A DNA stretch of 64,000 nt from Tubulanus polymorphus (taxonomy: Eukaryota; Animalia; Nemertea). The DNA lies in assembly GCF_964204645.1 (NCBI RefSeq), contig NW_027437455.1, forward strand, positions 38,455 to 102,454. Direction: 5' to 3'. Below the pieces are notes generated by a model, which was not told the origin of the DNA, searched no databases, and was given only the letters and a program-made list of their open reading frames with translations. Of this stretch, positions 1 to 41,733 are shown in pieces; within the stretch, counting starts at the first letter, position 1, and every line of letters starts with the position of its first letter. The position numbers and the translations under genes are program-made.

Positions 1-694
1 ATATATTATTATTATTAAATTTTGGATTTATAACTCTTGGATCTTCTATTACATTATCTGTACCAATATGTTTAATTGAGTATTTATGATTCAATTGTTT
101 ATCATATATTACATATTCTTTACATTTTTCACACCAAGATTTAAATACTTTTATTGCATGGGCTGAATCATTTCCACTTTTTGTTTTTAATTTATAATGT
201 TTTGCCCAATTAGCCTTTGTTATACATTCATTACAGAAAGCACAACAATTCTGATCCTCTTTACATTTATCTTTATATATATTGGCATATGTTTTTACTA
301 ATTGTAAAATATGTTCATCTTTTTTGATGTGTAATAAATAATCATTGTAATTATCAAAATCTTCTTCACAATACATACATCTGATGTTATCTTTTGGTTG
401 AACATTTGATTTTTCTATTTTAGGTTCAATATTATCATCATTCGATGTAGAAGGTATAACATTATCTTCTATTTTTATATCAATATTATCTTTTATTTTA
501 GGTTCAATATTATCTTCTATTTTTATATCAATATTATTATTACGTTCAATTAAATATTCTTTGTATTGATTTAATTCATTTAATAAAAATGTTCCAATAT
601 ATTCATTTATTCTTTTATAAGGTATTACATAATACAAATCATCATCGATTTCTTTATCAGCTTTGATTCTTTCATATAGTTTACCTCCTTCCAT
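1..694 (-). CDS. Multi-C2H2 zinc-finger protein, 3'-truncated by the window edge (not in the ORF track)
   Basis: Manual translation from ATG at 694 (MEGGKLYERIKADK...) is open to position 1. It has CMYC..HIKKDEH, CAFC..KHYK and CEKC..HKYSIKH motifs and short DNIEPKI/DIKIEDN repeats. TAAATG start. Confidence 0.8.
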   Translation of the reverse strand, partial: MEGGKLYERIKADKEIDDDLYYVIPYKRINEYIGTFLLNELNQYKEYLIERNNNIDIKIEDNIEPKIKDNIDIKIEDNVIPSTSNDDNIEPKIEKSNVQPKDNIRCMYCEEDFDNYNDYLLHIKKDEHILQLVKTYANIYKDKCKEDQNCCAFCNECITKANWAKHYKLKTKSGNDSAHAIKVFKSWCEKCKEYVIYDKQLNHKYSIKHIGTDNVIEDPRVINPKFNNNNI

Positions 695-726
695 TTATTA
701 TATATATTTTTATTAAAGTTAAAATT

Positions 727-1974
727 TTAATACATAACACTATCTAATTGAGAATTTACAATATTTAATTGCGCGTCAGATATAGTATAAATATGCATTT
801 TAAAATTTTTGATTCCCTTTTTCTTTGTCATGAATAATTGTATTCCATCTTTTGTATTTTGTAGTTTTTTTCCAGAACCATGTAATGAATTATCCTCTGT
901 TGTTCTAAAATCTAACCATAATGCAAATTTATTACTGGTATAATAATCAATTTGATTAATGTTACAATTTTCAAATGATTTTACTTTTTCATTCATAAAA
1001 TGTTTTTTAATTTCTACCCATTGATCTATCATTCTCATTCCTTGACAAAATATTTTATTCGCTATACCTTCGATAGTTATTTGTACTTTTGTTATTTCAG
1101 GATTATAATAATTGTCAACATTTATTGCACCATTAGTATACGTTCCAATGGTAAAAAATATTAATATACCTTTAATAGATCTTCTAGGAAAGTTAATATT
1201 CTCATTAATTATTTCATCATTTGCATTAATAGTTACAGTTTTAAATTTATCAATATAATCATATAATAATGAAAATCCTTGATTGTATTGAGTTTGAATT
1301 GTTCTAGCAATATTTTCATCAGTTACTGTATCATATTCTAAACATATATTCGATAATTTATAACTCATATCTTTATTAACGCTAGATAATACAATTTCAT
1401 TTACAGGAGCAAATGTTATCTCAAATACAATATCTTCTTGAATTGCGTATTTATATAAAGGTGCATTATTATTTATCAATTCAAAGTCTAATGGAATTTT
1501 ATATTTGCTTCCATATATACTTTTTATCAATTTATCTACATCATTTGTTAATATTGCGCTATTAGCTTCTGATCTTAATTTATTTTGGTTTTCTGATTGA
1601 ATTCCTTGAAATATCATATTATTTCTATTTTCTTTAGTTAACCATAAATCTTTATAGTGCATAAATAAATTATAATCATCTAATGAGAAAACTGTTTCTG
1701 GACCAATCTTTATTGTTAACTTTTTAATCAAATATCTTCCAACATTATCAACGACATAATTATTATTATTACCGATTACTTTTATATCAGCTGATAAATA
1801 AATACTGTTTGGAACATAAAAAGTATTTTGTGTTAATCTCGGAATTCTAACGTATAAAGTTTCATCGGGATTAATATTTGAAGGGTTATGAGTAATTATA
1901 TGATGTGATCTTTCTGCTTTAATAGCATTAGATATTCTATGATTCTTAGAAGGATTGATATAACTCCCACTCAT
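727..1974 (-). CDS. Putative major capsid protein (double jelly-roll)
   Basis: 415 aa, beta-strand-rich pattern (THNPSNINPDETLYVRIP, YKIPLDF, LSNICLEYD, SIKGILIFF, FALWLDFRT, YTISDAQLNI). Resembles, from memory, capsid ORFs of invertebrate Polinton-like elements. Size and context fit. Confidence 0.7.
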   Translation of the reverse strand: MSGSYINPSKNHRISNAIKAERSHHIITHNPSNINPDETLYVRIPRLTQNTFYVPNSIYLSADIKVIGNNNNYVVDNVGRYLIKKLTIKIGPETVFSLDDYNLFMHYKDLWLTKENRNNMIFQGIQSENQNKLRSEANSAILTNDVDKLIKSIYGSKYKIPLDFELINNNAPLYKYAIQEDIVFEITFAPVNEIVLSSVNKDMSYKLSNICLEYDTVTDENIARTIQTQYNQGFSLLYDYIDKFKTVTINANDEIINENINFPRRSIKGILIFFTIGTYTNGAINVDNYYNPEITKVQITIEGIANKIFCQGMRMIDQWVEIKKHFMNEKVKSFENCNINQIDYYTSNKFALWLDFRTTEDNSLHGSGKKLQNTKDGIQLFMTKKKGIKNFKMHIYTISDAQLNIVNSQLDSVMY

Positions 1975-1994
1975 TTATTTAACAAAAAAATTAA

Positions 1995-3419
1995 TTATTT
2001 ATTTTTAATCATGTTTACTAACCCAAAAATAATTGCACTTACAACTGTAATTAAAAATAAAATAATATGTTCAGCAGCAAAGTTAAGAATATTACCTGCA
2101 GATTTTAAAACAAAACCAACAATTGAAGCAATAACTCCGGGTAATGCTGCAGCAGATTTTTTAGATAGTTCCCATAAATATTTTGCTAATTTCTTTAAAC
2201 CATCTTTAACTTTATCTTGTATAGAATTATTGCTTGGAGGTTTATCTGGTTTATTAGGAGTGGGAGTAGATTTCAAAGCATTTGATATTGCTAAACCAAT
2301 TGTTGTAAATAACATAGTTACAGCTGTTAGAATGGAAAGAATTGTTATTCCTTCTAATTTAAATAATAATCTTATTCTGTCTTTTAATGATATTTCAGAA
2401 TCTGGTTTAATCAACAAATCTTTAAAAATAACTTTTAATCTATTTATATTATAATCATGTGATTTTAACAATAATTTAATTTCTTCTTTTTGTAATTCTA
2501 TGTTATATTCTAAATCATCAATTTCTTTTTCTAAACGTAATTCTTTTTGATTATATTCTATTTCATCAATTACTTGATGATCTAAATCAGACTTTAATTT
2601 TTCTATTTCTTTATTTTTATCAGATAATTCTTTTTCTAAAGTTCTAATTTTTTGATCTCTTATACTTTTATTATGTGCAATTTTATCAGCTTCATTTCTT
2701 ATACTAATAATTTCTCTAATTGCTTCATCAGAAAATATATTTAAATTTTCTAATTCTTGATCTGTTGCATCAAGTAATCCATTTGGTAAAAGTTTTTCAG
2801 TTTGAACTTTATTTGATTTAAGTTTACTAGTTTTGGAAGTTATATTCTGTTCAGAAGTTGTTTCTGTTTCTAAATTATTATTGATTATCTTAAAAAATTT
2901 AGCATTTCTTTGTTTAAATTCTTTTATATTATCAGATCTTTCTTTTTCTGTAACATCAATTATAGCATCATTATTGATTTTCTTAATTCTAGATTGTTCT
3001 AATAAATTAAAAGTTGATTTTGTTATTATTTTATCACCACTTTTAAGATTTGAAATCTTAAAATAATAGTCACCTTTCAATTTCCAATAATATTCACCAT
3101 TTAAAAATTTTAAATTTTTTACTAAATGATTCATACCTTTATTTGTTATATTGAATCCAGATTTTTCTAATATTGGTTTAAATTCATAAATAATTTCATT
3201 ATATTTTAATTCTTTTTCTGTTATTTCTGGTACTTCATTTTCAATACTTATCTTTGAACGTGTTTTATCAATATATTGAGGTGTAGTTAAATTAGAATTA
3301 TATGCTGTTTCATTACCATCATTAAAACTTGTTTCATCAAAATCAGGTGGTTGTTCATCAGTTATACCAGGTTCATCAAAAGGATCCATTCCAATATCTT
3401 CTACACCTTCTACATCCAT
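1995..3419 (-). CDS. Coiled-coil protein with C-terminal hydrophobic/amphipathic helices (putative virion membrane protein)
   Basis: 474 aa. Acidic N-terminus, long heptad-rich E/K region, then hydrophobic segments GITILSILTAVTMLFTTIGLAI, AAALPGVIASIVGFVL and IILFLITVVSAIIFGLV. TAAATG start. Confidence 0.75.
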   Translation of the reverse strand: MDVEGVEDIGMDPFDEPGITDEQPPDFDETSFNDGNETAYNSNLTTPQYIDKTRSKISIENEVPEITEKELKYNEIIYEFKPILEKSGFNITNKGMNHLVKNLKFLNGEYYWKLKGDYYFKISNLKSGDKIITKSTFNLLEQSRIKKINNDAIIDVTEKERSDNIKEFKQRNAKFFKIINNNLETETTSEQNITSKTSKLKSNKVQTEKLLPNGLLDATDQELENLNIFSDEAIREIISIRNEADKIAHNKSIRDQKIRTLEKELSDKNKEIEKLKSDLDHQVIDEIEYNQKELRLEKEIDDLEYNIELQKEEIKLLLKSHDYNINRLKVIFKDLLIKPDSEISLKDRIRLLFKLEGITILSILTAVTMLFTTIGLAISNALKSTPTPNKPDKPPSNNSIQDKVKDGLKKLAKYLWELSKKSAAALPGVIASIVGFVLKSAGNILNFAAEHIILFLITVVSAIIFGLVNMIKNK

Positions 3420-3435
3420 TTACATAATAAAAAAA

Positions 3436-4824
3436 TTAAAATTTAAAATATAATATTCCTCCGATTACAATTCCTATACAAGTTATAGCTAATTTAGTAT
3501 TTTCATGGGATTTATTATCATCATTTAGTTTAATTATATCATGTTGAATTTTATCAGTTCTATTATTTTCTGATGTATTGTAATCTTTTATTTTAGAATC
3601 ATTATCCAATTTAATATTCTTAGTTTTAGTTTCTGTTGATTGAATGTGTTTTTTATTTTTTTCACCTTCCATTAATTTTGGAGCAGTAATAATCTTTTTA
3701 TTTATATCATTTAACCCAAATGAATTATTTATTGTTGCAGTTTTAATTAGATTATTATAACCAATTATATTTCCCATCTTTAATACTAAATCATTAGAAA
3801 TAATTAATAGATTAGGGCCTATACAATAATTAAGTCTTACATGAGATTTATCTAAATAATTTTGATATCTTATAATGTTTTCTGGAATCGATCTATTTTT
3901 ATCATTATGAATTGAATCTTCAAATAAAACTTTAAACTGGTTTTGTGTATCGAATGATGTATTCAAATTTCCAATTATCGGTGATCTTGTTTCAACTTGT
4001 GATCCTAGAATACAAATCAAATAAGTTCTAATAGATTGATTTATTCTTTCTATACCTGATTTAGTAAAACCTTCACTATTTTCTAAAATAAAATAAACCC
4101 AACCATTATTGTTTTCTTGTTTTAAATTATCATAAAATTTTGGTAATTTATTGAAATTTAATGTTTCTAAATCCTTTGTTTCTATTTTACCATAACCTAA
4201 TTTTTTATTATAGATATTATAAAAACTATTAGATGGTATGGGAAGTGCACAATATTCTGCAATCTTTTTAGGGCATGGAAGTGATCTTATTGTTCCAATT
4301 TTTATTCTAAAATCAGAATTATTTATATCTATATTAAATTCATTGCAAATTTTATAAAACTTAGATAAATTAATATTATTATCTAATTCTTTAAAATATC
4401 TAGATCCTGGTAAAGCGCACTCTAATTCATTTAATATTATTCTGATTTGAAAGTATGTATGAAATCTAAATAAACTTTGAATTAGTTTATATTTAGAATT
4501 ATTTAAATGATCATTCCAACTTATTCCACATCCTGTTGTTGCACAATAAACAGCAAAATTTAATTGGTTCTGCCAATACTTCATATTAGATTTTAATAAC
4601 CATTGTTTTTCATCTTTCAATTTTTTAAAATTAATTAAATATACATGAAATATATTTTCCATCTTTGCATTAAAATTATTAGTTTCAGTAACGTAAATTT
4701 CTAAATTAGTTAATGAATCTAAAACTTCATTTCTATATGTAATATCTTTATTAAAATCTATTGCTGGAATATTATATTTAATTGATTTATTATATCGGAA
4801 AGTTTTTGGAAAACTATCTGCCAT
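3436..4824 (-). CDS. Polinton-like virus protein of unknown function with C-terminal membrane anchor
   Basis: 462 aa with WQNQLNFAVYCATTGCGIS, FRFHTYFQIR and INQSIRTYLICILGSQ blocks. Ends in LAITCIGIVIGGILYF. TAAATG start. Confidence 0.75.
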   Translation of the reverse strand: MADSFPKTFRYNKSIKYNIPAIDFNKDITYRNEVLDSLTNLEIYVTETNNFNAKMENIFHVYLINFKKLKDEKQWLLKSNMKYWQNQLNFAVYCATTGCGISWNDHLNNSKYKLIQSLFRFHTYFQIRIILNELECALPGSRYFKELDNNINLSKFYKICNEFNIDINNSDFRIKIGTIRSLPCPKKIAEYCALPIPSNSFYNIYNKKLGYGKIETKDLETLNFNKLPKFYDNLKQENNNGWVYFILENSEGFTKSGIERINQSIRTYLICILGSQVETRSPIIGNLNTSFDTQNQFKVLFEDSIHNDKNRSIPENIIRYQNYLDKSHVRLNYCIGPNLLIISNDLVLKMGNIIGYNNLIKTATINNSFGLNDINKKIITAPKLMEGEKNKKHIQSTETKTKNIKLDNDSKIKDYNTSENNRTDKIQHDIIKLNDDNKSHENTKLAITCIGIVIGGILYFKF

Positions 4825-4841
4825 TTATATAATTTAAAAAA

Positions 4842-5276
4842 TTAATAATTTATTAATTCTTTTAATAATTTATCTTGTTCTTCAACTGTTATATGACCAT
4901 TTAAACTTATTATATAATCTAGTGTGTTCTTTAATTTATTAATTTCTTTTATATTAGATTTTATTTTTTCTTTATTACTTTTTATATTTAATTTTGAACT
5001 TATACCAGTTAAAACACTTGAACTTAATCCTAATACACCAATTGATATAGCTAAAGGTGTTAATGGACTGAATATTGCTAGAAATGTTATTACAGAACTA
5101 ATTGTAACCGAACCACTTATAATCAAATAATATATAATTTTACTTTTTAGATATTTTTTCTTTTTTATCTTTAAGTCACTTTCAAATTCTAATATTTGTT
5201 TTTCTAAATATGTTTTTAATTTAGTTTTATTTATATCATGAGGAATAATATCAATACTATCAACTTTATCTTCCAT
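4842..5276 (-). CDS. Small membrane protein (two hydrophobic helices)
   Basis: 144 aa with a central hydrophobic hairpin flanked by basic coiled regions. TAAATG start. Confidence 0.7.
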   Translation of the reverse strand: MEDKVDSIDIIPHDINKTKLKTYLEKQILEFESDLKIKKKKYLKSKIIYYLIISGSVTISSVITFLAIFSPLTPLAISIGVLGLSSSVLTGISSKLNIKSNKEKIKSNIKEINKLKNTLDYIISLNGHITVEEQDKLLKELINY

Positions 5277-5295
5277 TTATTTAGAATAAAAATTA

Positions 5296-5713
5296 CTAAT
5301 TAGTAAACTTATAAGCAACAAATATAACAATAACAGTTCCACCTAAAATCCATATTATTTCATATTTCTGTTGTTCTTTACTCGGGGTATAATAATCTGA
5401 TAATTTAGGTTTGTATAGATTTTTCTTTATTTGTTACTGCGTTATATAAACTCATTGCATCATCAACTGATTGAAAATCTCTATGTGAAATCTTCTGATC
5501 ATATAATTCTTTATTGATGTAATCCATATAGTTTTGTCTCTTTTCTCTATATTCTTCTGCAGCTTTATTGTATTTCTCTAACGTTAAGTTATGTCTTCTT
5601 TGTTCTCCTAATGAACTATTTTTATCAATATGTTTAAATAAATATCCACCACCAGTAAATGCTAAAGCGTTAACAATTGCCGATCCTATAATAGTTATAA
5701 TTGCAGAAGCCAT
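5296..5713 (-). pseudogene. Small membrane protein with +1 frameshift near 5420-5424 (ORF track gives 5405-5713)
   Basis: Removing one base from the A5 run extends the ORF with NLYKPKLSDYYTPSKEQQKYEIIWILGGTVIVIFVAYKFTN* to a stop at 5296, 20 bp before the next ATG. This fills the gap and adds a C-terminal TM segment. Confidence 0.75.
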
Positions 5714-5736
5714 TTATTTAGCAAAAAATTATGCAT

Positions 5737-5958
5737 TTATATGGGAGGAATATATTTTTGTTTTTCCAAATAATCAATAGTTAAATTAGATAAAGTAACT
5801 GCTAATGTTAACTTTAAAATATCATTTATATCAAATCTATCAACATTAACACTTCCCATTTTGAATACTTTTTTTAATACCATTGAATAACCAACAGTTC
5901 CAACTGATAGTAATGCGCCATTATATAATCCAGTTATTATCCACTTATTATCACTCAT
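5737..5958 (-). CDS. Small hydrophobic protein
   Basis: 73 aa, TAAATG start overlapping the upstream stop, two amphipathic/hydrophobic helices. Confidence 0.7.
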   Translation of the reverse strand: MSDNKWIITGLYNGALLSVGTVGYSMVLKKVFKMGSVNVDRFDINDILKLTLAVTLSNLTIDYLEKQKYIPPI

Positions 5959-6315
5959 TTATTTATCAAAAAAATCACTATCATCAAAATATTTAGTTAT
6001 CTTAGTGATGATTATTTCAACATTTATTTTATTACTAGTTTCATTTGTATATATTTCAATTATTATTTTTTTAATATCATCGATTATAAAATCTTCATCT
6101 AATTCATAAAATCTTAAAGATTCTCTAATTAAATTAGTAATCTTTTCTACATTTAAAGTTTCTTTATCTATTGTTGTTTCATACTCAAATGTTGTTTCAT
6201 TAGAAAATACAATATTTTTGATATGTGTTATTACATCATTAATATTAAATTTCATTTCTTTCTCACGTTTAAAATCAAATCCAAAACATATACTCGGTCC
6301 AACAGTTATATTCAT
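5959..6315 (-). CDS. Hypothetical acidic protein
   Basis: 118 aa with a T7-N6-TAAATG start, tightly packed in the gene cluster. Confidence 0.65.
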   Translation of the reverse strand: MNITVGPSICFGFDFKREKEMKFNINDVITHIKNIVFSNETTFEYETTIDKETLNVEKITNLIRESLRFYELDEDFIIDDIKKIIIEIYTNETSNKINVEIIITKITKYFDDSDFFDK

Positions 6316-6331
6316 TTATATATCAAAAAAA

Positions 6332-7088
6332 TTACTCTCTACATCTTATAACTAATTCATATATCACAGGAAAGTTATTTAAATCAATTAAGTATCCATT
6401 ATGATTTCTTATTTCTAATTTAAAATTATTAAATTTAGGAATGCAAGGTTTAAAATCACATTCTGTTAAATTATAATTTATTTGAGTTCCAAATTGTTTA
6501 ACATTTTTTTAGCGGTAAAATATTTAGTATACTAGAACTACAAATTGTTTCTTTAGTTGCTTCGAAAGTTTTTGTGGGCTCGATTAAATTGCAATAAATA
6601 TAAAAGTGTGTAAAAGGTATTATATTTGGCGTAGTATCAACATTTGAATAAACTTTATTTGGATTAACTCCTAGCATTTTAGCTAATGGTTTTCTTACTA
6701 TGAATTTATATTGTTCATTAGTTAACTTTATTCTTATTTTATTAGTACTATCGATTTTATTAAATTTAATGTTAAACCCAACAGATTCACCCACTTTTAA
6801 CCGAGCTCTTCTATTAATTTCTTGTGCTAATGTATCTAAATTATATAATCCTGGTCTTAGAAATAGATGATACCATTTATCCATATTTCTATCATGAATC
6901 ATAAACAATCTATGATCAAAACTTTTATCCGATATATTGTAAAAAGAATTACATAAACTTATATTAACTAATTTTAAATCTACACAATTCTTAAATTCTC
7001 TATCTAATTGTACTAATAAATTATGAGATTTATAATTTGTAAGTTTTCTAGAATCAACAAATATTCTATATTCTTTTAATTCCGCCAT
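6332..7088 (-). pseudogene. Putative minor capsid (penton) protein with +1 frameshift in the A7 run at 6504-6510 (ORF track gives 6498-7088)
   Basis: N-terminal IFVDSR, LKLVNISLCNSFYNI, LRPGLYNLDTL and FYIYCNLI motifs are typical of Polinton pentons. The corrected frame ends FKLEIRNHNGYLIDLNNFPVIYELVIRCRE*, a penton-like C-terminus, for 251 aa in total. Confidence 0.75.
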
Positions 7089-7105
7089 TTATTTTACATA
7101 TTTTC

Positions 7106-7447
7106 TTATTCGAAATCTATTTCATGGTGTCCTTTTTCATTCTTACCTTTGTATATGAAATAGAAATCTCCAGAACATAATTCTTCTAGATCTTCACTTG
7201 ATAATCTATGAAATCTATCTGGTAAATAAGTCCTGAATTTATATTTATTTCCTTTTAATCCTTCATATTCTAAATGAATTACTAATTTATCTCCATATTT
7301 ATTAGTAATTGTAACAATATTTGTAATTAAATATTTCTTGTGAATTGTTAACTCAGTTAGTTTTTTGAATTTATAATCTACAGATTTTACATTTGTGGTA
7401 TCTTTAATTCTATCTAAGAATTCATTGTGTACTTGTTTACTCTCCAT
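7106..7447 (-). CDS. Small Polinton protein, possible OB-fold ssDNA-binding protein
   Basis: 113 aa with a KKLTEL..Y.I....TNKYG...TYLPDRF...FIYKG pattern, adjacent to PolB. The fold assignment is inference. Confidence 0.5.
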   Translation of the reverse strand: MESKQVHNEFLDRIKDTTNVKSVDYKFKKLTELTIHKKYLITNIVTITNKYGDKLVIHLEYEGLKGNKYKFRTYLPDRFHRLSSEDLEELCSGDFYFIYKGKNEKGHHEIDFE

Positions 7448-7475
7448 TTATTATACAAATTTTAATTGAAATTTA

Positions 7476-10400
7476 TTAACACGCTAGAATCCTTTTCATA
7501 ATCTCATTTTCTTTTGTTTCTTCTCTTTTGAATTTTATATATTCATCTAAATTGCAACCATAGGCGACTGTGTGGATTCCATCATCTAAAATATATCTTT
7601 TATCATCAAATGGATTTAGACTTATCTTCTCTATCTCTTCAATAAACATTTCGTGGTACTCAGATCTTAAACATTTCATTTTATGTTTTCTAACTTCTTC
7701 ATTAAATATACAATTGATGTAATCTTTAAAATGAATATTCTTTTCTACTACACTTTTGGTTATTCCTTTTAACTTTTTAGCTTCATGTTCTTTAGTTTTA
7801 TAACTATACATTTTAGATCTAATACCAATGAACTCTATCATTTCTTCACCGCCTAATTCATCCTTAAACTTCCCAGGAACTTTTTTATTATCATTGCTAA
7901 ACAATTCATGATCTTTAGGATAGTTACTGAAATCAAAATGGTGTTTTAATATTTTTAAGTCTTTTGTTATGTTATCACTTTTTATCTTTAATATGTAACT
8001 GTCAGTATCTAGATATAATATTTCTATATTTTTTTCTCCAAAATGGGGTTGTAATATGTTATAGTAAAATTGATACATTAATAACTTTGATAATTCTAAA
8101 ACCGATGCACCAACATAGATTGGTTTATTGAACTTCATAGAAGTTCTTTTTAATTTAACTGCTGCTAAATTTTCATCGAATATTCTATTACCTATGAATT
8201 TCGGATACGATTGCAAATGTCTAATTCTTTTACCATTACTGACTAACTCAATGTCGTTTCTATTACGAATATTCTCACAAGTCTTACCATAAAACGCATT
8301 ATTCATCAATTTAAAAAAATCCTTCTCAAAATCAGTTTTAGCTTCAGTTCTCTGTGTAGTATTAAAATCTATATATTTTTCTAACCACTTAGATTGACTA
8401 AATGAAATATATCTATGTACTTTTTTTAGAATCATTCCTTGATTCAAATAGAATTTTAACATTCTATAATGCACAACGTAATTATATTTATCTTCTTGAG
8501 TTACCATTAACTTTTCAGTATGAATATGATTATCGGGTTTAATTCTTTTTTGATAATTTGATAATTCTTCATGTTTAACAGTTTTATGTTCGGGACAATA
8601 TGCTAGATTTCTAGATTTGAATTTAATATTTTCAGGGTATTCTAAATCTACAACAAAGAAGTAACCAATATCTGAATCATCTGCAATATCTAGGATTCTT
8701 TTCTTCCAATCAAATTTATCAATTTGTAAAACTTCAGTTATTTCAAACATCCCATAAGGTTGTGGTTCTATCATTGCCCAACCATAAAGATTATTTGCAT
8801 CTATGTATAATAATTTATATCCAGGATTATCATTTACATTGAAATATCTATCACCCAATACACCTGAAACACCTCCTCTTATAGATTTTTCAAATAATAG
8901 TAATTGATCTATATTTGTTAACAAGTCCATTTTTATATCTGTAAATTTTAATCCACAATCCCATGTTAATCCTGGACTAGAATAACAATGACAAGGATCA
9001 ATATTGAAATATTTTAGGTTTACATCTCTAAACCTTTCGAATATATCGGTTAATAATAATACATCTGATTTTAAATATAAATCTACTAATTGTCCATGAT
9101 TTTTAATTTCGAAATGATTCCAAATATTCAATGTTCTATTATAGACTTCATCTTTAACATATTCATTTTTTATTTCATCATAGAATTGTTCTTTCAATAA
9201 TTCAGTTATTTTAAAATCATTATGATTTTTATAGAAAGAATATGGAATTGCTCCTTTATATCTCATTAATTTAAAATCATCATAATTTGGGTAATATTCT
9301 TTTAATATCTTTAATTCATCATCAACTAATGATTTAGATAAATTATCTAATGAACTATTTAAAAATCTATATGAATCTATAAATCTTAAACAACCAAATT
9401 GGAATGATATATAATTCTCAGATGTTTTAGCTAACATTCTAAATTTATAAGTTGGTATTTTATCTTTTGATCTATTTGAATTTAATCTTTCTATTTCATT
9501 ATTAATTTCTTCTATTTTATGACACAGTTGTTTGATAAATAAATGTGCGTCATATCCTGATAGATTATGAAATATAATGGGGACAAAATTTACTTTTTTG
9601 GCTTGCAAATTACAATTCTCATGTGCAGCGCCTCTAAACTTTCCATTCAAATGATCATGGTCTCTTACTTTTTTATCTTTATAATTAAATATCTTTTCAC
9701 AATAATAACATTTATCTGCAAACGCAAATACTTCTTTATCTTCTTCTGTCATAATTATTTCTTTATTTGTATTCAATAATTTACTAAATCTTATTTCATA
9801 TTCAATTAATAAGTCACAAAAATGATTGATAACATTTTCATTTCTATAATGATAATATTCACTTTCAATTAGTTCTGGATAATCAGATTTTATATATAAC
9901 CCGAAAGCAGCAGCTGATTGATGAATCATTTTAATAGTATTTGTTATTGGTGGTTCTTCTGAATAATCACTTTCATTAGAATTTAATTTCTTTCTTTTAT
10001 AATATATATCTTTTCTATCTTTATCTGTTAATTCTTTATTTAATGATTCAAAATCTCCATATATTACAAATGGTACTTTATTTTTGTAATCATATTTTTT
10101 GAATTCTAATATTTTATCTTTTTCATTTGGTAAAACTAATTTACAATAATCATGATTATCACATAATTGTTTATGATTTAATAATGCACCTTCAGTTCTG
10201 AATTTATGTAAACATTTTCTACATAGATATATTTTATTATCAAAATCATTTTCTGATTTAAAAAATAAATCAATTCTTTTAATCCACATATAATGATTCT
10301 CATAATATAGTATATCTATAACATCATTTGAATCATAATCTTTTGATAGGTATAAAGGTTCTAATGTATAATGTTTAATATTATTTCCTTTCGTATTTGG

Positions 10401-11510
10401 TAATTTGATTAAATCAAATACATTTATCTTTATATTATTATCTCTTTCTATTTTTGGAATATTTTTAATTCTAACAGGATACTTATCTATCTTATAATTA
10501 TTTTCAAATTGTTTATAATGAGTTAATCTATAAGTATGTTTATTATAATCTTCAACTGGGTGTAAACAACTTATTATAGCCCATAGAAAACATTTATCAT
10601 CTTCATTTTGTATATTTATTACACCATTAGTTTTAAATGGTAGTTTAATATAACTTGTTCCATTTATACTATCATCTTTATAATATGATAAATTATTTTC
10701 ATCAATTGGTTTTGATTTAGTTAACTTATTATATTTTGTGTTATAAACATGTAAAGTTATAAATATTATCTCATCAAACATTAAACCAGATCCTTCAAAA
10801 TATTTCTCTTCTATTTTAGTTTTTATTTCATTATAACATTTATTTAATTTATCATCTATATGTTGTTTAGATATAATATGTTGTGAATGAGAATTTATAT
10901 TATATATTGGTTTATCTTCAGATTTTATAAACTTTACTTTAACTGATATACTAATTTTAGGATATTCAACATCTGTAATTATTTTTATTATTTCTTTCAT
11001 ATTTTCTAAATGTTTTTTATTTTCTTCTAATGTTTTTCCTTTATGAAATTTAAACTCGATAGCTGCTGGACCAATATCACTTTTAAATGCTTCGGTTATC
11101 TCTATATCTTTTTTATTATCTAATGAATTAATATAATTTCTTACATCTTCCATATATGGTCTTTTATTGTTTAATTTATTTTTTATTCTTTTAATTGTCT
11201 TCTGTTTCTTATCGTTATCATTATCAAAATAATCTTCACCTAAAATATCATTATTCTTATTTCTAATATGACTTATAGATTTTAAATGTTCTTTATAATA
11301 TCTTTTATCACTGAATGATTGATTACATGTATCACATTTGTATGTTTCTTTTTCATTCTTTAATTCTTCTAATTTAGTTTCTAATATATCATCCTTATAT
11401 TCTAGTTTCAATTTATTCTCTAAATGTGTTATAGTTTTATTGTGTCTTGCTTTTTGAGATTTATCTATATCGATATTACATGTTGGGCAGTAGTATTTAT
11501 TTGCTTCCAT
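7476..11510 (-). CDS. polB: Protein-primed family B DNA polymerase with N-terminal zinc fingers, vOTU-like region and inserted endonuclease VII-like domain
   Basis: 1344 aa intact. ExoI VIYGDFES, ExoII FHNLSGYD, ExoIII YLKSDV; Pol motifs YIDANNLYG, KLMNNAFYGK, YLDTDS, KMY, KLKG. EndoVII-like CYYC..VRDHDHLNGKFRGAAHENCN. Candidate vOTU Cys/His residues in DKCFLWA...HYMWI. Confidence 0.95.
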   Translation of the reverse strand: MEANKYYCPTCNIDIDKSQKARHNKTITHLENKLKLEYKDDILETKLEELKNEKETYKCDTCNQSFSDKRYYKEHLKSISHIRNKNNDILGEDYFDNDNDKKQKTIKRIKNKLNNKRPYMEDVRNYINSLDNKKDIEITEAFKSDIGPAAIEFKFHKGKTLEENKKHLENMKEIIKIITDVEYPKISISVKVKFIKSEDKPIYNINSHSQHIISKQHIDDKLNKCYNEIKTKIEEKYFEGSGLMFDEIIFITLHVYNTKYNKLTKSKPIDENNLSYYKDDSINGTSYIKLPFKTNGVINIQNEDDKCFLWAIISCLHPVEDYNKHTYRLTHYKQFENNYKIDKYPVRIKNIPKIERDNNIKINVFDLIKLPNTKGNNIKHYTLEPLYLSKDYDSNDVIDILYYENHYMWIKRIDLFFKSENDFDNKIYLCRKCLHKFRTEGALLNHKQLCDNHDYCKLVLPNEKDKILEFKKYDYKNKVPFVIYGDFESLNKELTDKDRKDIYYKRKKLNSNESDYSEEPPITNTIKMIHQSAAAFGLYIKSDYPELIESEYYHYRNENVINHFCDLLIEYEIRFSKLLNTNKEIIMTEEDKEVFAFADKCYYCEKIFNYKDKKVRDHDHLNGKFRGAAHENCNLQAKKVNFVPIIFHNLSGYDAHLFIKQLCHKIEEINNEIERLNSNRSKDKIPTYKFRMLAKTSENYISFQFGCLRFIDSYRFLNSSLDNLSKSLVDDELKILKEYYPNYDDFKLMRYKGAIPYSFYKNHNDFKITELLKEQFYDEIKNEYVKDEVYNRTLNIWNHFEIKNHGQLVDLYLKSDVLLLTDIFERFRDVNLKYFNIDPCHCYSSPGLTWDCGLKFTDIKMDLLTNIDQLLLFEKSIRGGVSGVLGDRYFNVNDNPGYKLLYIDANNLYGWAMIEPQPYGMFEITEVLQIDKFDWKKRILDIADDSDIGYFFVVDLEYPENIKFKSRNLAYCPEHKTVKHEELSNYQKRIKPDNHIHTEKLMVTQEDKYNYVVHYRMLKFYLNQGMILKKVHRYISFSQSKWLEKYIDFNTTQRTEAKTDFEKDFFKLMNNAFYGKTCENIRNRNDIELVSNGKRIRHLQSYPKFIGNRIFDENLAAVKLKRTSMKFNKPIYVGASVLELSKLLMYQFYYNILQPHFGEKNIEILYLDTDSYILKIKSDNITKDLKILKHHFDFSNYPKDHELFSNDNKKVPGKFKDELGGEEMIEFIGIRSKMYSYKTKEHEAKKLKGITKSVVEKNIHFKDYINCIFNEEVRKHKMKCLRSEYHEMFIEEIEKISLNPFDDKRYILDDGIHTVAYGCNLDEYIKFKREETKENEIMKRILAC

Positions 11511-11590
11511 TTTAATACTATATTTTTTATTAAAATTGATTTTAGAAGTTCAATGATTTAAATGTTATTCATATATGTGAATATTTTAAG

Positions 11591-11859
11591 AGTAATAGGG
11601 GTTTAGTTGTTTCAAGCTAAAGGTTGAACGGGCGGGTGAGTAAAAATGAAAAAACATAAAAATAATAACAATTTCTACTTGAATTAGGAGTGAAACTCAT
11701 AAAAATGAAAAATAAATTCGAGCGTGTGAGAATTTATTTTTCATTTTTATGAGTTTTGCGAGTAATTCAAGTAGAAATTGTTATTATTTTTATGTTTTTT
11801 CATTTTTTACGAGCTCGACCGTTCGACCTTTGGCCTGAAACAACTAAACCCCTATTACT
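11591..11859. repeat. 269-bp imperfect palindrome (terminal hairpin) at the element end
   Basis: Arm 11591-11719 (AGTAATAGGGGTTTAGTTGTTTCA...AAATTC) is the reverse complement of 11730-11859 apart from a few bubbles. The loop is GAGCGTGTGA (11720-11729). Confidence 0.95.
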
Positions 11860-14800
11860 GACATTGTCGTTTTTCCGATAGGGGGAATATTTGATACGAA
11901 AACGTCTTTTCTCGCGCTGAACGACGTTTTCGGGTCGAAAAGTGCTTTTCCTGACGATTTGAGCGCTTTTACGCATCGACATTGTCGTTTTTCCGATAGG
12001 GGGAATATTTGATACGAAAACGTCTTTTCTCGCGCTGAACGACGTTTTCGGGTCGAAAAGTGCTTTTCCTGACGATTTGAGCGCTTTTACGCATCGACAT
12101 TTTCGTTTTTCCGATAGGGGGAATATTTGATACGAAAACGTCTATTCCCGCGCTGAACGACGTTTTCGGGTCGAAAAGTGCTTTTCCTGACGATTTGAGC
12201 GTTTTTACGCATCGACATTGTCGTTTTTCCGATAGGCGGAATGTTTGATACGAAAACGTCTTTTCTCGCGCTGAACGACGTTTTCGGGTCGAAAAGTGCT
12301 TTTCCTGACGATTTGAGCGCTTTTACGCATCGACATTGTCGTTTTTCCGATAGGGGGAATATTTGATACGAAAACGTCTTTTCTCGCGCTGAACGACGTT
12401 TTCGGGTCGAAAAGTGCTTTTCCTGACGATTTGAGCGCTTTTACGCATCGACATTTTCGTTTTTCGGATAGGGGGAATATTTGATACGAAAACGTCTTTT
12501 CTCGCGCTGAACGACGTTTTCGCGTCGAAAAGTGCTTTTCCTGACGATTTGAGCGCTTTTACGCATCGACATTTTCATTTTTCCGATAGGGGGAATATTT
12601 GATACGAAAACGTCTTTTCTCGCGCTGAACGACGTTTTCGCGTCGAAAAGTGCTTTTCCTGACGATTTGAGCGCTTTTACGCATCGACATTTTCGTTTTT
12701 CCGATAGGGGGAATATTTGATACGAAAACGTCTTTTCTCGCGCTGAACGACGTTTTCGGGTCGAAAAGTGCTTTTCCTGACGATTTGAGCGCTTTTACGC
12801 ATCGACATTGTCGTTTTTCCGATAGGGGGAATATTTGATACGAAAACGTCTTTTCTCGCGCTGAACGACGTTTTCGGGTCGAAAAGTGCTTTTCCTGACG
12901 ATTTGAGCGCTTTTACGCATCGACATTGTCGTTTTTCCGATAGGGGGAATATTTGATACGAAAACGTCTTTTCTCGCGCTGAACGACGTTTTCGCGTCGA
13001 AAAGTGCTTTTCCTGACGATTTGAGCGCTTTTACGCATCGACATTGTCGTTTTTCCGATAGGCGGAATGTTTGATACGAAAACGTCTTTTCTCGCGCTGA
13101 ACGACGTTTTCGGGTCGAAAAGTGCTTTTCCTGACGATTTGAGCGCTTTTACGCATCGACATTTTCGTTTTTCCGATAGGGGGAATATTTGATACGAAAA
13201 CGTCTTTTCTCGCGCTGAACGACGTTTTCGGGTCGAAAAGTGCGTTTCCTGACGATTTGAGCGCTTTTACGCATCGACATTGTCGTTTTTCCGATAGGGG
13301 GAATATTTGATACGAAAACGTCTTTTCTCGCGCTGAACGACGTTTTCGGGTCGAAAAGTGCTTTTCCTGACGATTTGAGCGCTTTTACGCATCGACATTG
13401 TCGTTTTTCCGATAGGGGGAATATTTGATACGAAAACGTCTTTTCTCGCGCTGAACGACGTTTTCGGGTCGAAAAGTGCTTTTCCTGGCGATTTGAGCGC
13501 TTTTACGCATCGACATTTTCGTTTTTCCGATAGGGGGAATATTTGATACGAAAACGTCTTTTCTCGCGCTGAACGACGTTTTCGCGTCGAAAAGTGCTTT
13601 TCCTGACGATTTGAGCGCTTTTACGCATCGACATTGTCGTTTTTCCGATAGGGGGAATATTTGATACGAAAACATCTTTTCTCGCGCTGAACGACGTTTT
13701 CGGGTCGAAAAGTGCTTTTCCTGACGATTTGAGCGCTTTTACGCATCGACATTGTCGTTTTTCCGATAGGGGGAATATTTGATACGAAAACGTCTTTTCT
13801 CGCGCTGAACGACGTTTTCGGGTCGAAAAGTGCGTTTCCTGACGATTTGAGCGCTTTTACGCATCGACATTGTCGTTTTTCCGATAGGGGGAATATTTGA
13901 TACGAAAACGTCTTTTCTCGCGCTGAACGACGTTTTCGGGTCGAAAAGTGCTTTTCCTGACGATTTGAGCGCTTTTACGCATCGACATTTTCGTTTTTCC
14001 GATAGGGGGAATATTTGATACGAAAACGTCTTTTCTCGCGCTGAACGACGTTTTCGCGTCGAAAAGTGCTTTTCCCGACGATTTGAGCGCTTTTACGCAT
14101 CGACATTTTCGTTTTTCCGATAGGGGGAATATTTGATACGAAAACGTCTTTTCTCGCGCTGAACGACGTTTTCGCGTCGAAAAGTGCTTTTCCTGACGAT
14201 TTGAGCGCTTTTACGCATCGACATTTTCATTTTTCCGATAGGGGGAATATTTGATACGAAAACGTCTCTTCCCGCGCTGAACGAACGTTTTCGGGTCGAA
14301 AAGTGCTTTTCCTGACGATTTGAGCGCTTTTACGCATCGACATTTTCGTTTTTCCGATAGGGGGAATATTTGATACGAAAACGTCTTTTCTCGCGCTGAA
14401 CGACGTTTTCGCGTCGAAAAGTGCTTTTCCTGACGATTTGAGCGCTTTTACGCATCGACATTGTCGTTTTTCCGATAGGGGGAATATTTGATACGAAAAC
14501 GTCTTTTCTCGCGCTGAACGACGTTTTCGCGTCGAAAAGTGCTTTTCCTGACGATTTGAGCGCTTTTACGCATCGACATTTTCGTTTTTCCGATAGGGGG
14601 AATATTTGATACGAAAACGTCTCTTCCCGCGCTGAACGAACGTTTTCGGGTCGAAAAGTGCTTTTCCTGACGATTTGAGCGCTTTTTCGCATCGACATTT
14701 TCGTTTTTCGGATAGGGGGAATATTTGATACGAAAACGTCTTTTCTCGCGCTGAACGACATTTTCGCGTCGAAAAGTGCTTTTCCTGACGATTTGAGCGC

Positions 14801-17800
14801 TTTTACGCATCGACATTTTCATTTTTCCGATAGGGGGAATATTTGATACGAAAACGTCTTTTCTCGCGCTGAACGACGTTTTCGCGTCGAAAAGTGCTTT
14901 TCCTGACGATTTGAGCGCTTTTACGCATCGACATTGTCGTTTTTCCGATAGGCGGAATGTTTGATACGAAAACGTCTTTTCTCGCGCTGAACGACGTTTT
15001 CGGGTCGAAAAGTGCTTTTCCTGACGATTTGAGCGCTTTTACGCATCGACATTGTCGTTTTTCCGATAGGGGGAATATTTGATACGAAAACGTCTTTTCT
15101 CGCCCTGAACGACGTTTTCGCGTCGAAAAGTGCTTTTTCCTGACGATTTGAGCGCTTTTACGCATCGACATTGTCGTTTTTCCGATAGGGGGAATATGCG
15201 ATACGAAAACGTTCTTTCTCGCGCTGAACGACGTTTTCGGGTCGAAAAGTGCTTTTCCTGACGATTTGAGCGCTTTTACGCATCGACATTGTCGTTTTTC
15301 CGATAAGGGGAATATTCGATACGAAAACGTCTTTTCTCGCGCTGAACGACGTTTTCGCGTCGGAATATTTGATACGAAAACGTCTCTTCCCGCGCTGAAC
15401 GAACCTTTTCGGGTCGAAAAGTGCTTTTCCTGACGATTTGAGCGCTTTTACGCATCGACATTGTCGTTTTTCCGATAGGGGGAATATTTGATACGAAAAC
15501 GTCTTTTCTCGCGCTGAACGACGTTTTCGCGTCGAAAAGTGCTTTTCCTGACGATTTGAGCGCTTTTACGCATCGACATTGTCGTTTTTCCGATAGGGGG
15601 AATATTTGATACGAACGCTCTTTCGCGCCGAACGACGTTTTCGTGTTGAGCGCTTTCTGACGATTTGAGTGCTTTTACGCATCGACATTGTCGTTTTTCC
15701 GATAGGGGGAAGGATTGATACGAAAACGTCTTTTTCGCGCTGAACGACGTTTTCGCGTCGAAAAGCGCTTTTCCTGACGATTTGAGCGCTTTTACGCATC
15801 GACATTTTCGTTTTTCGGATAGGGGGAATATTTGATACGAAAACGTCTTTTCTCGCGCTGAACGACGTTTTCGGGTCGAAAAGTGCTTTTCCTGGCGATT
15901 TGAGCGCTTTTACGCATCGAAATTTTCGTTTTTCCGATAGGGGGAATATTTGATACGAAAACGTCTTTTCTCGCGCTGAACGACGTTTTCGCGTCGAAAA
16001 GTGCTTTTCCTGACGATTTGAGCGCTTTTACGCATCGACATTGTCGTTTTTCCGATAGGCAGATTTGAATACGAAAACGTCTTTTCTCGCGCTGAACGAC
16101 GTTTTCGGGTCGAAAAGTGCTTTTCCTGACGATTTGAGCGCTTTTACGCATCGACATTGTCGTTTTTCCGATAGGGGGAATATTTGATACGAAAACGTCT
16201 TTTCTCGCGCTGAACGACGTTTTCGCGTCGAAAAGTGCTTTTCCTGACGATTTGAGCGCTTTTACGCATCGACATTTTCATTTTTCCGATAGGGGAATAT
16301 TTGATACGAAAACGTCTCTTCCCGCGCTGAACGAACGTTTTCGGTCGAAAAGTGCTTTTCCTGACGATTTGAGCGCTTTTACGCATCGACATTTTCGTTT
16401 TTCCGATAGGGCAGATTTGATACGAAAACGTCTTTTCTCGCGCAGCGCGTTTTCTCGCGTCGAAAAGTGCTTTTCCTGACGATTTGAGCGCTTTTACGCA
16501 TCGACATTGTCGTTTTTCCGATAGGGGGAATATTTGATACGAAAACGTCTTTTCTCGCGCTGAACGACGTTTTCGCGTCGAAAAGTGCTTTTCCTGACGA
16601 TTTGAGCGCTTTTACGCATCGACATTTTCGTTTTTCCGATAGGGGGAATATTTGATACGAAAACGTCTTTTCTCGCGCTGAACGACGTTTTCGCGTCGAA
16701 AAGTGCTTTTCCTGACGATTTGAGCGCTTTTACGCATCGACATTGTCGTTTTTCCGATAGGGCAGATTTTGATACGCAGAGTTCTTCGCGCCGTAACGAC
16801 GTTTTCGCGTCGAAAAGTGCTTTTCCTGCCGATTTGAGCGCTTTTTACGCATCGACATTGTCGTTTTTCGGATAGGGGGAATATTTGATACGAAAACGTC
16901 TTTTCCCGCGCTGAACGACGTTTTCGGGTCGAAAAGTGCTTTTCCTGACGATTTGAGCGCTTTTACGCATCGACATTTTCGTTTTTCCGATTGGGGGAAT
17001 ATTTGATACGAAAACGTCTATTCGCGCGCTGAACGACGTTTTCGGGTCGAAAAGTGCTTTTCCTGACGATTTGAGCGCTTTTACGCATCGACATTGTCGT
17101 TTTTCCGATAGGGGGAATATTTGATACGAAAACGTCTTTTCTCGCGCTGAACGACGTTTTCGGGTCGAAAAGTGCTTTTCCTGACGATTTGAGCGCTTTT
17201 ACGCATCGACATTTTCGCTTTCTGATAGGGGGAATATTTGATACGAAAACGTCTTTTCTCGCGCTGAACGACGTTTTCGGGTCGAAAAGTGCTTTTCCTG
17301 ACGATTTGAGCGCTTTTACGCATCGACATTTTCGTTTTTCGCATAGGGACATTTTGATACCAAAACGTCTTTTCTCGTGCTGAACGACGTTTTCGCGTCG
17401 AAAAGTGCTTTTCCTGACGATTTGAGCGCTTTTACGCATCGACATTTTCGTTTTTGGCACAGGGAATATTTGATACGAAAACGTCTTTCTCGCGCTGAAC
17501 GACGTTTTCGCGTCGAAAAGTGCTTTTCCTGACGATTTGAGCGCTTTTACGCATCGACATTGTCGTTTTTCCGATAGGGGGAATATTTGATACGAAAACG
17601 TCTTTTTTCGCGCTGAACGACGTTTTCGGGTCGAAAAGTGCTTTTCCTGACGATTTGAGCGCTTTTACGCATCGACATTGTCGTTTTTCCGATAGGGGGA
17701 ATATTTGATACGAAAACGTCTTTTCTCGCGCTGAACGACGTTTTCGGGCTCGAAAAGTGCTTTTCCTGACGATTTGAGGCGCTTTTACGCATCGACATTT

Positions 17801-20800
17801 TCATTTTTCCGATAGGGGGAATATTTGATACGAAAACGTCTCTTCCCGCGCTGAACGAACGTTTTCGGGTCGAAAAGTGCTTTTCCTGACGATTTGAGCG
17901 CTTTTACGCATCGACATTTTCGTTTTTCGGATAGGGGGAATATTTGATACGAAAACGTCTCTTCCCGCGCTGAACGAACGTTTTCGGGTCGAAAAGTGCT
18001 TTTCCTGGCGATTTGAGCGCTTTTACGCATCGGCATTTTCGTTTTTCGGATAGGGGGAATATTTGATACGAAAACGTCTTTTCTCGCGCTGAACGACGTT
18101 TTCGCGTCGAAAAGTGCTTTTCCTGACGATTTGAGCGCTTTTACGCATCGACATTTTCGTTTTTCGGATAGGGGGAATATTTGATACGAAAACGTCTTTT
18201 CTCGCGCTGAACGACGTTTTCGGGTCGAAAAGTGCTTTTCCTGGCGATTTGAGCGCTTTTACGCATCGACATTTTCGTTTTTCCGATAGGGGGAATATTT
18301 GATACGAAAACGTCTTTTCTCGCGCTGAACGACGTTTTCGCGTCGAAAAGTGCTTTTCCTGACGATTTGAGCGCTTTTACGCATCGACATTGTCGTTTTT
18401 CCGATAGGGGGAATATTTGATACGAAAACGTCTTTTCTCGCGCTGAACGACGTTTTCGGGTCGAAAAGTGCTTTTCCCGACGATTTGAGCGCTTTTACGC
18501 ATCGACATTTTCATTTTTCCGATAGGGGGAATATTTGATACGAAAACGTCTCTTCCCGCGCTGAACGAACGTTTTCGGGTCGAAAAGTGCTTTTCCTGAC
18601 GATTTGAGCGCTTTTACGCATCGACATTTTCGTTTTTTCCGATAGGGGGAATATTTGATACGAAAACGTCTTTTCTCGCGCTGAACGACGTTTTCGCGTC
18701 GAAAAGTGCTTTTCCCGACGATTTGAGCGCTTTTACGCATCGACATTGTCGTTTTTCCGATAGGGGGAATATTTGATACGAAAACGTCTTTTCTCGCGCT
18801 GAACGACGTTTTCGGGTCGAAAAGTGCTTTTCCCGACGATTTGAGCGCTTTTACGCATCGACATTGTCGTTTTTCCGATAGGGGGAATATTTGATTCGAA
18901 AACGTTTTTTCTCGCGCTGACCGACGTTTTCGCGTCGAAAAGTGCTTTTCCTGACGATTTGAGCGCTTTTACGCATCGACATTTTAATTTTTCCGATAGG
19001 GGGAATATTTGATACGAAAACGTCTCTTCCCGCGCTGAACGAACGTTTTCGGGTCGAAAAGTGCTTTTCCTGACGACTTGAGCGCTTTTACGCATCGACA
19101 TTTTCGTTTTTCGGATAGGGGGAATATTTGATACGAAAACGTCTTTTCTCGCGCTGAACGACGTTTTCGCGTCGAAAAGTGCTTTTCCTGACGATTTGAG
19201 CGCTTTTACGCATCGACATTTTCATTTTTCCGATAGGGGGAATATTTGATACGAAAACGTCTCTTCCCGCGCTGAACGAACGTTTTCGGGTCGAAAAGTG
19301 CTTTTCCTGACGATTTGAGCGCTTTTACGCATCGACATTTACGTTTTTCGGATAGGGGGAATATTTGATACGAAAACGTCTTTTCTCCCGCTGAACGACG
19401 TTTTCGCGTCGAAAAGTGCTTTTCCTGACGATTTGAGCGCTTTTACGCATCGACATTGTCGTTTTTCCGACAGGGGGAATATTTGATACGAAAACGTCTT
19501 TTCTCGCGCTGAACGACGTTTTCGGGTCGAAAAGTGCTTTTCCTGACGATTTGAGCGCTTTTACGCATCGACATTGTCGTTTTTCCGATAGGGGGAATAT
19601 TTGATACGAAAACGTCTTTTCTCGCGCTGAACGACGTTTTCGCGTCGAAAAGTGCTTTTCCTGACGATTTGAGCGCTTTTACGCATCGACATTGTCGTTT
19701 TTCTGATAGGGGGAATATTTGATACGAAAACGTCTTTTCTCGCGCTGAACGACGTTTTCGCGTCGAAAAGTGCTTTTCCTGACGATTTGAGCGCTTTTAC
19801 GCATCGACATTTTCATTTTTCCGATAGGGGGAATATTTGATACGAAAACGTCTTTTCTCGCGCTGAACGACGTTTTCGGGTCGAAAAGTGCTTTTCCTGA
19901 CGATTTGAGCGCTTTTACGCATCGACATTGTCGTTTTTCCGATAGGGGGAATATTTGATACGAAAACGTCTTTTCTCGCGCTGAACGACGTTTTCGCGTC
20001 GAAAAGTGCTTTTCCTGACGATTTGAGCGCTTTTACGCATCGACATTGTCGTTTTTCCGATAGGGGGAATATTTGATACGAAAACGTCTTTTCTCGCGCT
20101 GAACGACGTTTTCGGGTCGAAAAGTGCTTTTCCTGACGATTTGAGCGCTTTTACGCATCGACATTTTCGTTTTTCCGATAGGGGGAATATTTGATACGAA
20201 AACGTCTTTTCTCGCGCTGAACGACGTTTTCGCGTCGAAAAGTGCTTTTCCTGACGATTTGAGCGCTTTTACGCATCGACATTGTCGTTTTTCTGATAGG
20301 GGGAATATTTGATACGAAAACGTCTTTTCTCGCGCATAACGACGTTTTCGGGTCGAAAAGTGCTTTTCCTGACGATTTGAGCGCTTTTACGCATCGACAT
20401 TGTCGTTTTTCCGATAGGGGGAATATTTGATACGAAAACGTCTTTTCTCGCGCTGAACGACGTTTTCGCGTCGAAAAGTGCTTTTCCCGACGATTTGAGC
20501 GCTTTTACGCATCGACATTTTCATTTTTCCGATAGGGGGAATATTTGATACAAAAACGTCTCTTCCCGCGCTGAACGAACGTTTTCGGGTCGAAAAGTGA
20601 TTTTCCTGACGATTTGAGCGCTTTTACGCATCGACATTTTCGTTTTTCGGATAGGGGGAATATTTGATACGAAAACGTCTTTTCTCGCGCTTAACGACGT
20701 TTTCGCGTCGAAAAGTGCTTTTCCTGACGATTTGAGCGCTTTTACGCATCGACATTTTCATTTTTCCGATAGGGGGAATATTTGATACGAAAACGTCTCT

Positions 20801-41732: not shown

Positions 41733-41733
41733 A

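Follow-up and report, generated by a model that had tools for sequence, protein, structure and literature searches.

The 64,000-nucleotide stretch of Tubulanus polymorphus DNA analyzed here (contig NW_027437455.1; hereafter the window) holds, at positions 1 to 11859, the right part of an integrated, multicopy Polinton (Maverick) with 11 codirectional minus-strand genes, almost all of which share one start-codon signal resembling poxvirus late and intermediate promoters. The left part of this copy lies beyond the window edge, and the integrase and ATPase are not among the window genes. The GC content of 1-11859 is 19 to 27%. The features are as follows (aa, amino acids; ORFs, open reading frames; the core is the part of the start signal upstream of the spacer).

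2..694, minus strand: accessory gene with Cys/His (zinc-finger-like) clusters, crossing the left window edge; TAAATG start, A-run core
727..1974, minus strand: major capsid protein (MCP), double jelly roll (DJR), 415 aa; TAAATG start, T7 core
1995..3419, minus strand: conserved family gene, 474 aa, with a coiled coil and a hydrophobic C terminus; the family comprises 43 ORFs in 41 loci
3436..4824, minus strand: conserved family gene, 462 aa, with a helical core in its model; 28 ORFs in 27 loci
4842..5276, minus strand: two-helix membrane protein, 144 aa, with weak SLATT-like scores below the cutoff
5405..5713, minus strand: conserved small membrane protein, 102 aa, 3' end broken; the counterpart in relative L003 has 139 aa
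5737..5958, minus strand: conserved hydrophobic protein, 73 aa, found in 24 loci
5959..6315, minus strand: 118-aa gene; the next start supplies its stop codon (TAA), leaving the sole zero gap
6498..7088, minus strand: probable minor capsid (penton) gene, 196 aa, A-run core, 3' end broken; the L003 homolog has 254 aa
7106..7447, minus strand: 113-aa gene, A-run core, with a homolog in L003
7476..11510, minus strand: protein-primed PolB, 1344 aa, containing an endonuclease VII insert, its motifs read from sequence; TAAAATG start, A6 core
11591..11859, no strand: terminal imperfect palindrome, 269 nt, with AGTA at its start and TACT at its end; element boundary
11860..64000, no strand: host flank, an array of 118-bp satellite repeats immediately next to the element

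The predicted model of the MCP (pLDDT 86) was matched by Foldseek to the capsids of PBCV-1, iridovirus, and mavirus (E ≤ 1e-10), which supplies the DJR capsid required of a Polinton. Searches for MCP homologs found 846, and none of its relatives turned up in viral contigs or in plasmids. All 14 aligned homologs of PolB had PF02945 and three of them had PF03175, which was not present in the window protein itself; PolB had no sequence matches in the PDB beyond zinc fingers. The product of 6498-7088 is 39% identical to its homolog in L003, whose Atlas model resembles, at TM 0.74, DUF5901 proteins from large DNA viruses; that homolog matched no solved penton structure, and the model makes a penton a probable identity. 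Structure searches with the model of the 462-aa protein (3436-4824) returned no fold match. Pfam named no adenovirus-type maturation protease in the 11 window ORFs, the relatives' ORFs having been scanned in part. Relatives with 70 to 77% identical MCPs (L001 and L003) encode an rve-chromodomain integrase together with a Pox_A32 ATPase, as does L005 by homology, and homologs of the zinc-finger-like gene adjoin the MCP gene in L001, L002, and L005, with the same A-run start.

The palindrome at 11591-11859 is bulged and could form one long hairpin (predicted energy, -115.6 kcal/mol; z = -22; none of 100 shuffles as stable). A terminal palindrome of this length is unusual in a protein-primed replicon and recalls hairpin-ended viral genomes. 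A search near it for the consensus pattern of poxvirus concatemer resolution found none, and no comparable palindromes were found in relatives, most of whose loci lack their ends. Integration in a eukaryotic genome is evident both from the satellite junction at 11860 and from divergent copies in raw DNA reads of a different sample under the same species label. Those reads covered all 30 bins of 1-12300, with 11 to 519 reads per mate direction in internal bins (from 1,934 million letters) and many fixed differences from the window; full coverage combined with so many fixed differences indicates a divergent multicopy endogenous family. With the DJR capsid and PolB, the satellite junction bears out the claim of an earlier annotation made from the letters alone (the sequence-only reading) that this is an endogenous Polinton-like virus (PLV). 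Read depth in the terminal bin was several-fold the internal depth. In addition, 84 raw reads link the region before the zinc-finger gene (711) to the region before PolB (11533), reflecting either internally deleted copies or cross-mapping of two similar A-core promoters. One presumed-RNA run yielded one contig with two short matches to the element, which bears neither way on expression. The satellite array itself holds two ~4-kb insertions (38259-42289 and 43121-47164) at the same satellite position; the former, which has ~530-bp direct repeats at its ends and a tRNA-like primer site but lacks any 150-aa ORF, is a nonautonomous long terminal repeat (LTR) element.

All 11 start codons proposed by the sequence-only reading were recovered at their positions on the minus strand, 10 of them as TAAATG and the remaining one, that of PolB, as TAAAATG. 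TAAATG is far rarer at the other coding-strand ATGs (21/271; Fisher p = 6e-10), and its occurrence at starts exceeds what the local upstream TAA frequency (0.10) would predict (binomial p = 1e-9). A run of five to seven Ts ends 6 to 8 nt before TAAATG at 7 of 11 starts, compared with 0 of 21 internal TAAATG occurrences (p = 1e-4). These seven starts are consecutive (1974, 3419, 4824, 5276, 5713, 5958, and 6315), as the sequence-only reading had described, but its further description of them as a structural module goes too far, since only 727-1974 is shown to be structural and the probable penton gene (start at 7088) has an A-run. Similarly, its intergenic gaps of 0 to 32 bp hold for 8 of 10 gaps; the other two, of 128 and 182 bp, arise because genes 5405-5713 and 6498-7088 end early compared with their intact homologs. 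That reading had missed, besides the terminal palindrome, a T at -12 in 11 of 11 starts and a run of four to six As ending at -13 in every one of the four starts without a T-run. Within the window the two core classes are sharp:

1972..1998, minus strand: representative T-core start signal (a T-run spanning -12, then a spacer and TAAATG)
3417-3443, 4822-4848, 5274-5300, 5711-5737, 5956-5982, and 6313-6339, minus strand: further T-core signals
11508..11534, minus strand: representative A-core start signal (A4-6 up to -13, then T at -12, a spacer, and TAAA(A)TG)
692-718, 7086-7112, and 7445-7471, minus strand: further A-core signals

A T-core start also precedes a deoxynucleoside kinase gene in the close relative L003 (10340-10981). 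Neither TAAAT nor TAAATG is avoided inside coding DNA. Runs of five or more Ts are depleted in the coding DNA of the clade defined below (65 observed versus 107 expected), as is TTTTTNT (18 versus 46 expected); the latter belongs to the general depletion of such runs on both strands, is weak in the window alone, and was dropped as support for the signal.

We compared the window with 83 capsid-bearing loci, comprising the best 80 of 157 metagenome matches and 3 from genome bins, and counted as starts the first ATGs of ORFs having a homolog in another locus. The clade consists of the window and its 16 closest loci, groups having been drawn after capsid identity and motif were seen. TAAATG occurred at 65 of 76 clade starts and at 9 of 11 starts in a sister group of five loci, falling to 1 of 58 in 17 other loci below 40% GC and 3 of 316 in 45 loci at or above 40% GC, while clade loci with 36 to 44% GC kept their TAAATG starts. 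As an independent check of the grouping, a quick tree of 57 MCP rows (L032, L070, L053, and L079 being too partial for inclusion) placed the motif in 14 of 15 rows of a clade with 99% support and in a three-row sister group, whose placement is unsure owing to long branches. The motif label requires 2 changes on this tree, compared with 14.9 when shuffled. With three near-duplicate loci removed, T at -12 marks 50 of 55 clade starts but only 20 of 52 internal TAAATG occurrences (p = 1e-8), and G follows at +4 in 48 of the 65 clade TAAATG starts. Short intergenic gaps, by comparison, are family-wide and not peculiar to the motif clade.

In head-to-head clade gaps of 19 to 30 bp, TAAATG faces both ways in 6 of 7 pairs (two of which are near-duplicates), and in the sister group it does so across 14 and 29 bp. 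Because no gene ends in these gaps, stop-start and poly(A)-signal artefacts are excluded there. AATAAA overlaps 29 of the 65 clade starts and is absent from the other 36. Taken together with the AT-rich relatives that lack the motif, the head-to-head pairs and the partial AATAAA overlap show that AT-richness, stop-start coupling, and poly(A) signals do not explain the signal. We conclude that the TAAATG start signal is a trait of one clade and not an artefact of composition.

Outside this clade, 27 other PolB-related elements have TAAATG at 19 of 268 starts. Seven of these belong to a single Polinton (L412:1-9034), without which the count is 12 of 261; in it, all 7 ORFs begin with TAAATG, 4 of them with T at -12. 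Its ATPase is different, its rve integrase is N-terminally extended (protease-like by eye), and its contig contains no window-type MCP. Since the integrase and ATPase architecture differs, the signal was likely gained more than once, with L412 as a likely independent gain. Two other sequence patterns were seen among the relatives. GC-rich outgroup loci (such as L021, L025, L028, and L055) have TTGAA/TTCAA words near their starts, possibly another nonhost promoter type, and show no excess of AATAAA after stops (7/244 versus 6.6 expected). Strong AT-rich hairpins lie between convergent genes (L001:3687-3852, L002:3043-3208, and L005:3120-3277; z about -10 versus base shuffles, with L001 and L002 near-identical) and are a possible 3'-end signal.

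Whose RNA polymerase might read such a signal? Vaccinia late promoters place TAAAT(G) over the start codon, with a conserved T at the 10th upstream nucleotide and Ts around it, and the upstream part of vaccinia intermediate promoters prefers A (PMC11980589). Elsewhere the poxvirus late promoter is given as a 5- to 7-bp spacer followed by TAAAT(G/A) (PMC5294985). In our element, TAAATG likewise covers the start codon, and T-rich (late) or A-rich (intermediate) cores stand upstream at fixed spacing. The conserved T at -12 is the 9th base upstream of TAAAT, or the 10th counted from its first A; the counting in PMC11980589 may differ, and the window fits both poxvirus classes within one base when set against published descriptions rather than poxvirus DNA. 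This fixed-register, bipartite, clade-specific signal agrees with the late promoter architecture recognized by the sequence-only reading. We then compared the clade with 722 starts from iridovirus-like genomes (the best 80 of 434 capsid loci). TAAA lies at -3 to -6 in 367 of these, but its register drifts (118, 99, 78, and 72 at -3, -4, -5, and -6), compared with 61 of 72 at -3 in the clade. Furthermore, T at -12 accompanies 57 of 118 iridovirus-like starts versus 55 of 61 in the clade, and +4 G is found in 15% versus 70%. The fixed register, -12 T, and +4 G favor a pox-type reader, and the layout appears closer to published poxvirus late/intermediate promoters than to the iridovirus-like genomes examined.

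Our best explanation, which we hold to be somewhat more probable than its competitors combined, is that this integrated Polinton carries pox late/intermediate-type start signals and is transcribed by the RNA polymerase of a coinfecting virus, either a poxvirus or a close virus of pox type, and not by that of the host. Confidence differs among its parts: dependence on some large DNA virus is likely, while we lean only slightly toward a pox-type helper in particular. An entomopoxvirus specifically, as the sequence-only reading proposed, is unsupported, given that TAAATG is also a late-gene mark in the salmon gill poxvirus (PMC4542343) as well as in an entomopoxvirus, DlEPV (PMC3061580), and that yeast linear plasmids have a TAAAN initiator (PMC6211774). 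The host might gain antiviral protection, though nothing found here supports that. Under the preferred explanation, postreplicative transcription factors of the helper would bind the core around -12, and RNA would start inside the AAA of TAAATG. Slippage, described as the source of a 5' poly(A) leader in PMC6211774, would then add such a leader, so that the mRNA would read AAA-AUG-G; this would remove the apparent conflict with the Kozak preference raised by T at -3. Genes with A-cores (PolB, the zinc-finger gene, the 113-aa gene, and the probable penton) would fire before those with T-cores (capsid and membrane proteins), an order modeled on intermediate before late. The element would then rely on its own PolB for replication, on its own capsid and ATPase for packaging, and on its rve integrase for reinsertion.

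Several observations weigh against this explanation. The core classes that are sharp in the window grade across the clade (28 T, 19 A, and 9 mixed), and the MCP genes of L008, L012, and L013 have A-rich cores. There is no early-type promoter in front of PolB, and a copy in the nucleus has to reach a cytoplasmic polymerase in some way, although in the Cafeteria roenbergensis virus (CroV) system with endogenous mavirus-like elements (EMALEs), an integrated copy does meet the helper polymerase (PMC10945749). Scanning viral contigs for the pattern three times (67, 47, and 120 loci, the last over ~4/64 parts) identified no poxvirus and returned iridovirus-like, other NCLDV-like (nucleocytoplasmic large DNA virus), and phage contigs, and no poxvirus-shared gene was seen. 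Iridovirus-like genomes also place TAAA beside ATG, as the 118 of 722 starts in register show. In two isolate-sized iridovirus-like contigs (L138 and L139), TAAATG is found at 10 of 28 starts and has T at -12 in 8 of the 10, a set partly selected by the pattern. An outgroup-element gene family has a homolog in the iridovirus-like L139:2870-3499 (tblastn E to 1e-14).

These points lead to the rival that survives best, in which some other large DNA virus is the helper, for example an iridovirus of invertebrates or an NCLDV not yet described; it would bring its own RNA polymerase, and its initiator too would lie on the start codon. The closer L138/L139 starts and the family-9 gene in common with L139 keep it a real rival, as does the frequency of TAAA near iridovirus-like starts, and the nuclear phase of iridoviruses (PMC5294985) would ease access to an integrated copy. 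A 128-kb, 23% GC viral contig that encodes two FkbM methyltransferases (L297:1-8021) has TAAATG at 5 of 6 starts, in keeping with such a helper. Against this stand the drifting register, weaker -12 T, and scarce +4 G of the iridovirus-like set, and we regard a helper of this kind as unlikely.

A host RNA polymerase II core promoter is less probable still. Here the TBP-bound T/A element would combine with a start-codon initiator and a near-zero 5' untranslated region (UTR), and the element would be an autonomous nuclear Polinton. Outgroup elements are equally compact and have upstream words of their own (TTGAA/TTCAA), which means that a lineage-specific motif need not imply a poxvirus. Nevertheless, two full promoters with their 5' UTRs would need to fit into 14 to 30 bp, the clade shows no TATA enrichment at -30, and the satellite and LTR elements of the host are of a kind ordinary in eukaryotes. 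Capped mRNAs with nearly no leader also initiate poorly in animals.

Another source of the polymerase, which we consider very improbable, would be a resident helper element resembling yeast pGKL2, or else a gene on the portion of the Polinton beyond the window. Yeast linear plasmids do combine a pox-related RNA polymerase with a TAAAN initiator, slippage, and stem-loop termination (PMC6211774), to which the hairpins between convergent genes in L001, L002, and L005 could correspond. However, neither the window nor the 83 loci contain an RNA-polymerase-sized ORF (none above 600 aa except PolB-like ones), L003 spans the region beyond the MCP without a polymerase gene, and the pGKL upstream element is an early-type ATNTGA, unlike the T/A core. 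The last alternative, that AT-richness and tight packing alone produce the signal (stop against start, AATAAA, and T-run terminators of the upstream gene), could appeal to the low GC content, the AATAAA overlaps, the T-runs after stop codons, and the depletion of T-runs in coding DNA, but with stop against start in 1 of 10 window gaps and the signal and T-run present in head-to-head gaps, it is largely refuted by these gaps and by the start counts and is the least credible of all.

A bolder possibility, which we consider doubtful, is that some animal Polintons are endogenous poxvirus virophages. This clade and, independently, L412 would have been wholly rewired to a pox intermediate/late cascade and would lie silent in many germ-line copies, forming an inherited antiviral system that infection triggers, an animal counterpart of mavirus. 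If this is true, the sequence of a Polinton, through its start-codon motifs, might suffice to predict its class of helper. The clade-wide pox-type signal makes helper dependence cheaply and directly testable, points to undescribed pox-type viruses in hosts of the clade, and suggests that Polinton lineages change helpers by rewriting all their promoters.

Among known systems, animal Mavericks/Polintons (Polintoviricetes) share with the element or its family a protein-primed PolB that contains an endonuclease VII insert, an rve integrase with a chromodomain, an A32 ATPase, a DJR capsid, and an AG...CT terminus. The element differs in that its capsid family lacks a Pfam DJR match, its terminus is itself a long palindrome, and its signal is mostly missing from the 27 other PolB-related Polintons. 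We found no literature report of TAAATG starts in Polintons, in coverage that largely excludes subscription papers. The accessible parts of 10.1101/2024.03.23.586382, 10.1101/2025.10.09.676808, PMC10328495, and PMC4642659 describe no pox-type promoter in a Polinton, and in the accessible text of two classification frameworks (10.64898/2026.06.19.733378 and 10.64898/2026.10.13.758929) the word "promoter" has 0 matches, while their supplements may place the capsid family.

Poxvirus late/intermediate promoters, such as those of vaccinia and mpox, resemble the signal in having TAAATG on the start codon, an upstream T within a T-run, a 6- to 8-nt spacer, an A-preferring second class, and G after TAAAT. 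Unlike poxviruses, the element is small, integrates, lacks an RNA polymerase, and carries the signal at nearly every gene, its DNA polymerase included; its transcription start site and poly(A) leader are predicted ones. The yeast cytoplasmic linear plasmids pGKL1 and pGKL2 are likewise linear, with protein-primed PolB, near-zero intergenic DNA, and a TAAAN initiator, but they have their own pox-related polymerase and an ATNTGA upstream element, and neither a capsid nor integration.

PLVs are also present in entomopoxvirus occlusion bodies (PMC11296320), in line with the sequence-only reading, which had mentioned such PLVs. AHEV_PLV1/2, CBEV_PLV1, and Ca_PLV1 belong to the same ~12-kb capsid-encoding class and are proposed poxvirus parasites, and Ca_PLV1 is also integrated and has PolB (PMC11296320). 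In the accessible part of that source, these PLVs lack an rve integrase and have an adenovirus-type protease and a mu-like protein, neither of which was identified in the element; their unaligned capsid rows in the supplement share no stretch with the element's capsid by eye, and a word search of the accessible text found no mention of promoter, motif, or TAAAT. Mavirus, EMALE type 4 of Cafeteria, and the inducible PLVs of Tetraselmis are, like the element and its relatives, integrated and multicopy, with protein-primed PolB, rve integrase, and capsid, and each lineage has a single promoter motif that indicates its helper. EMALE type 4, for example, carries the CroV late motif and is the sole type induced by CroV (PMC10945749). 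These systems differ in their protist hosts, mimivirus-type helper, demonstrated induction, and other motif and capsid; for the element, helper and induction are predicted. The regulatory signature described here is real, clade-wide, and apparently undescribed, and the element that bears it appears to be of a known kind, a helper-matched, virophage-like one.

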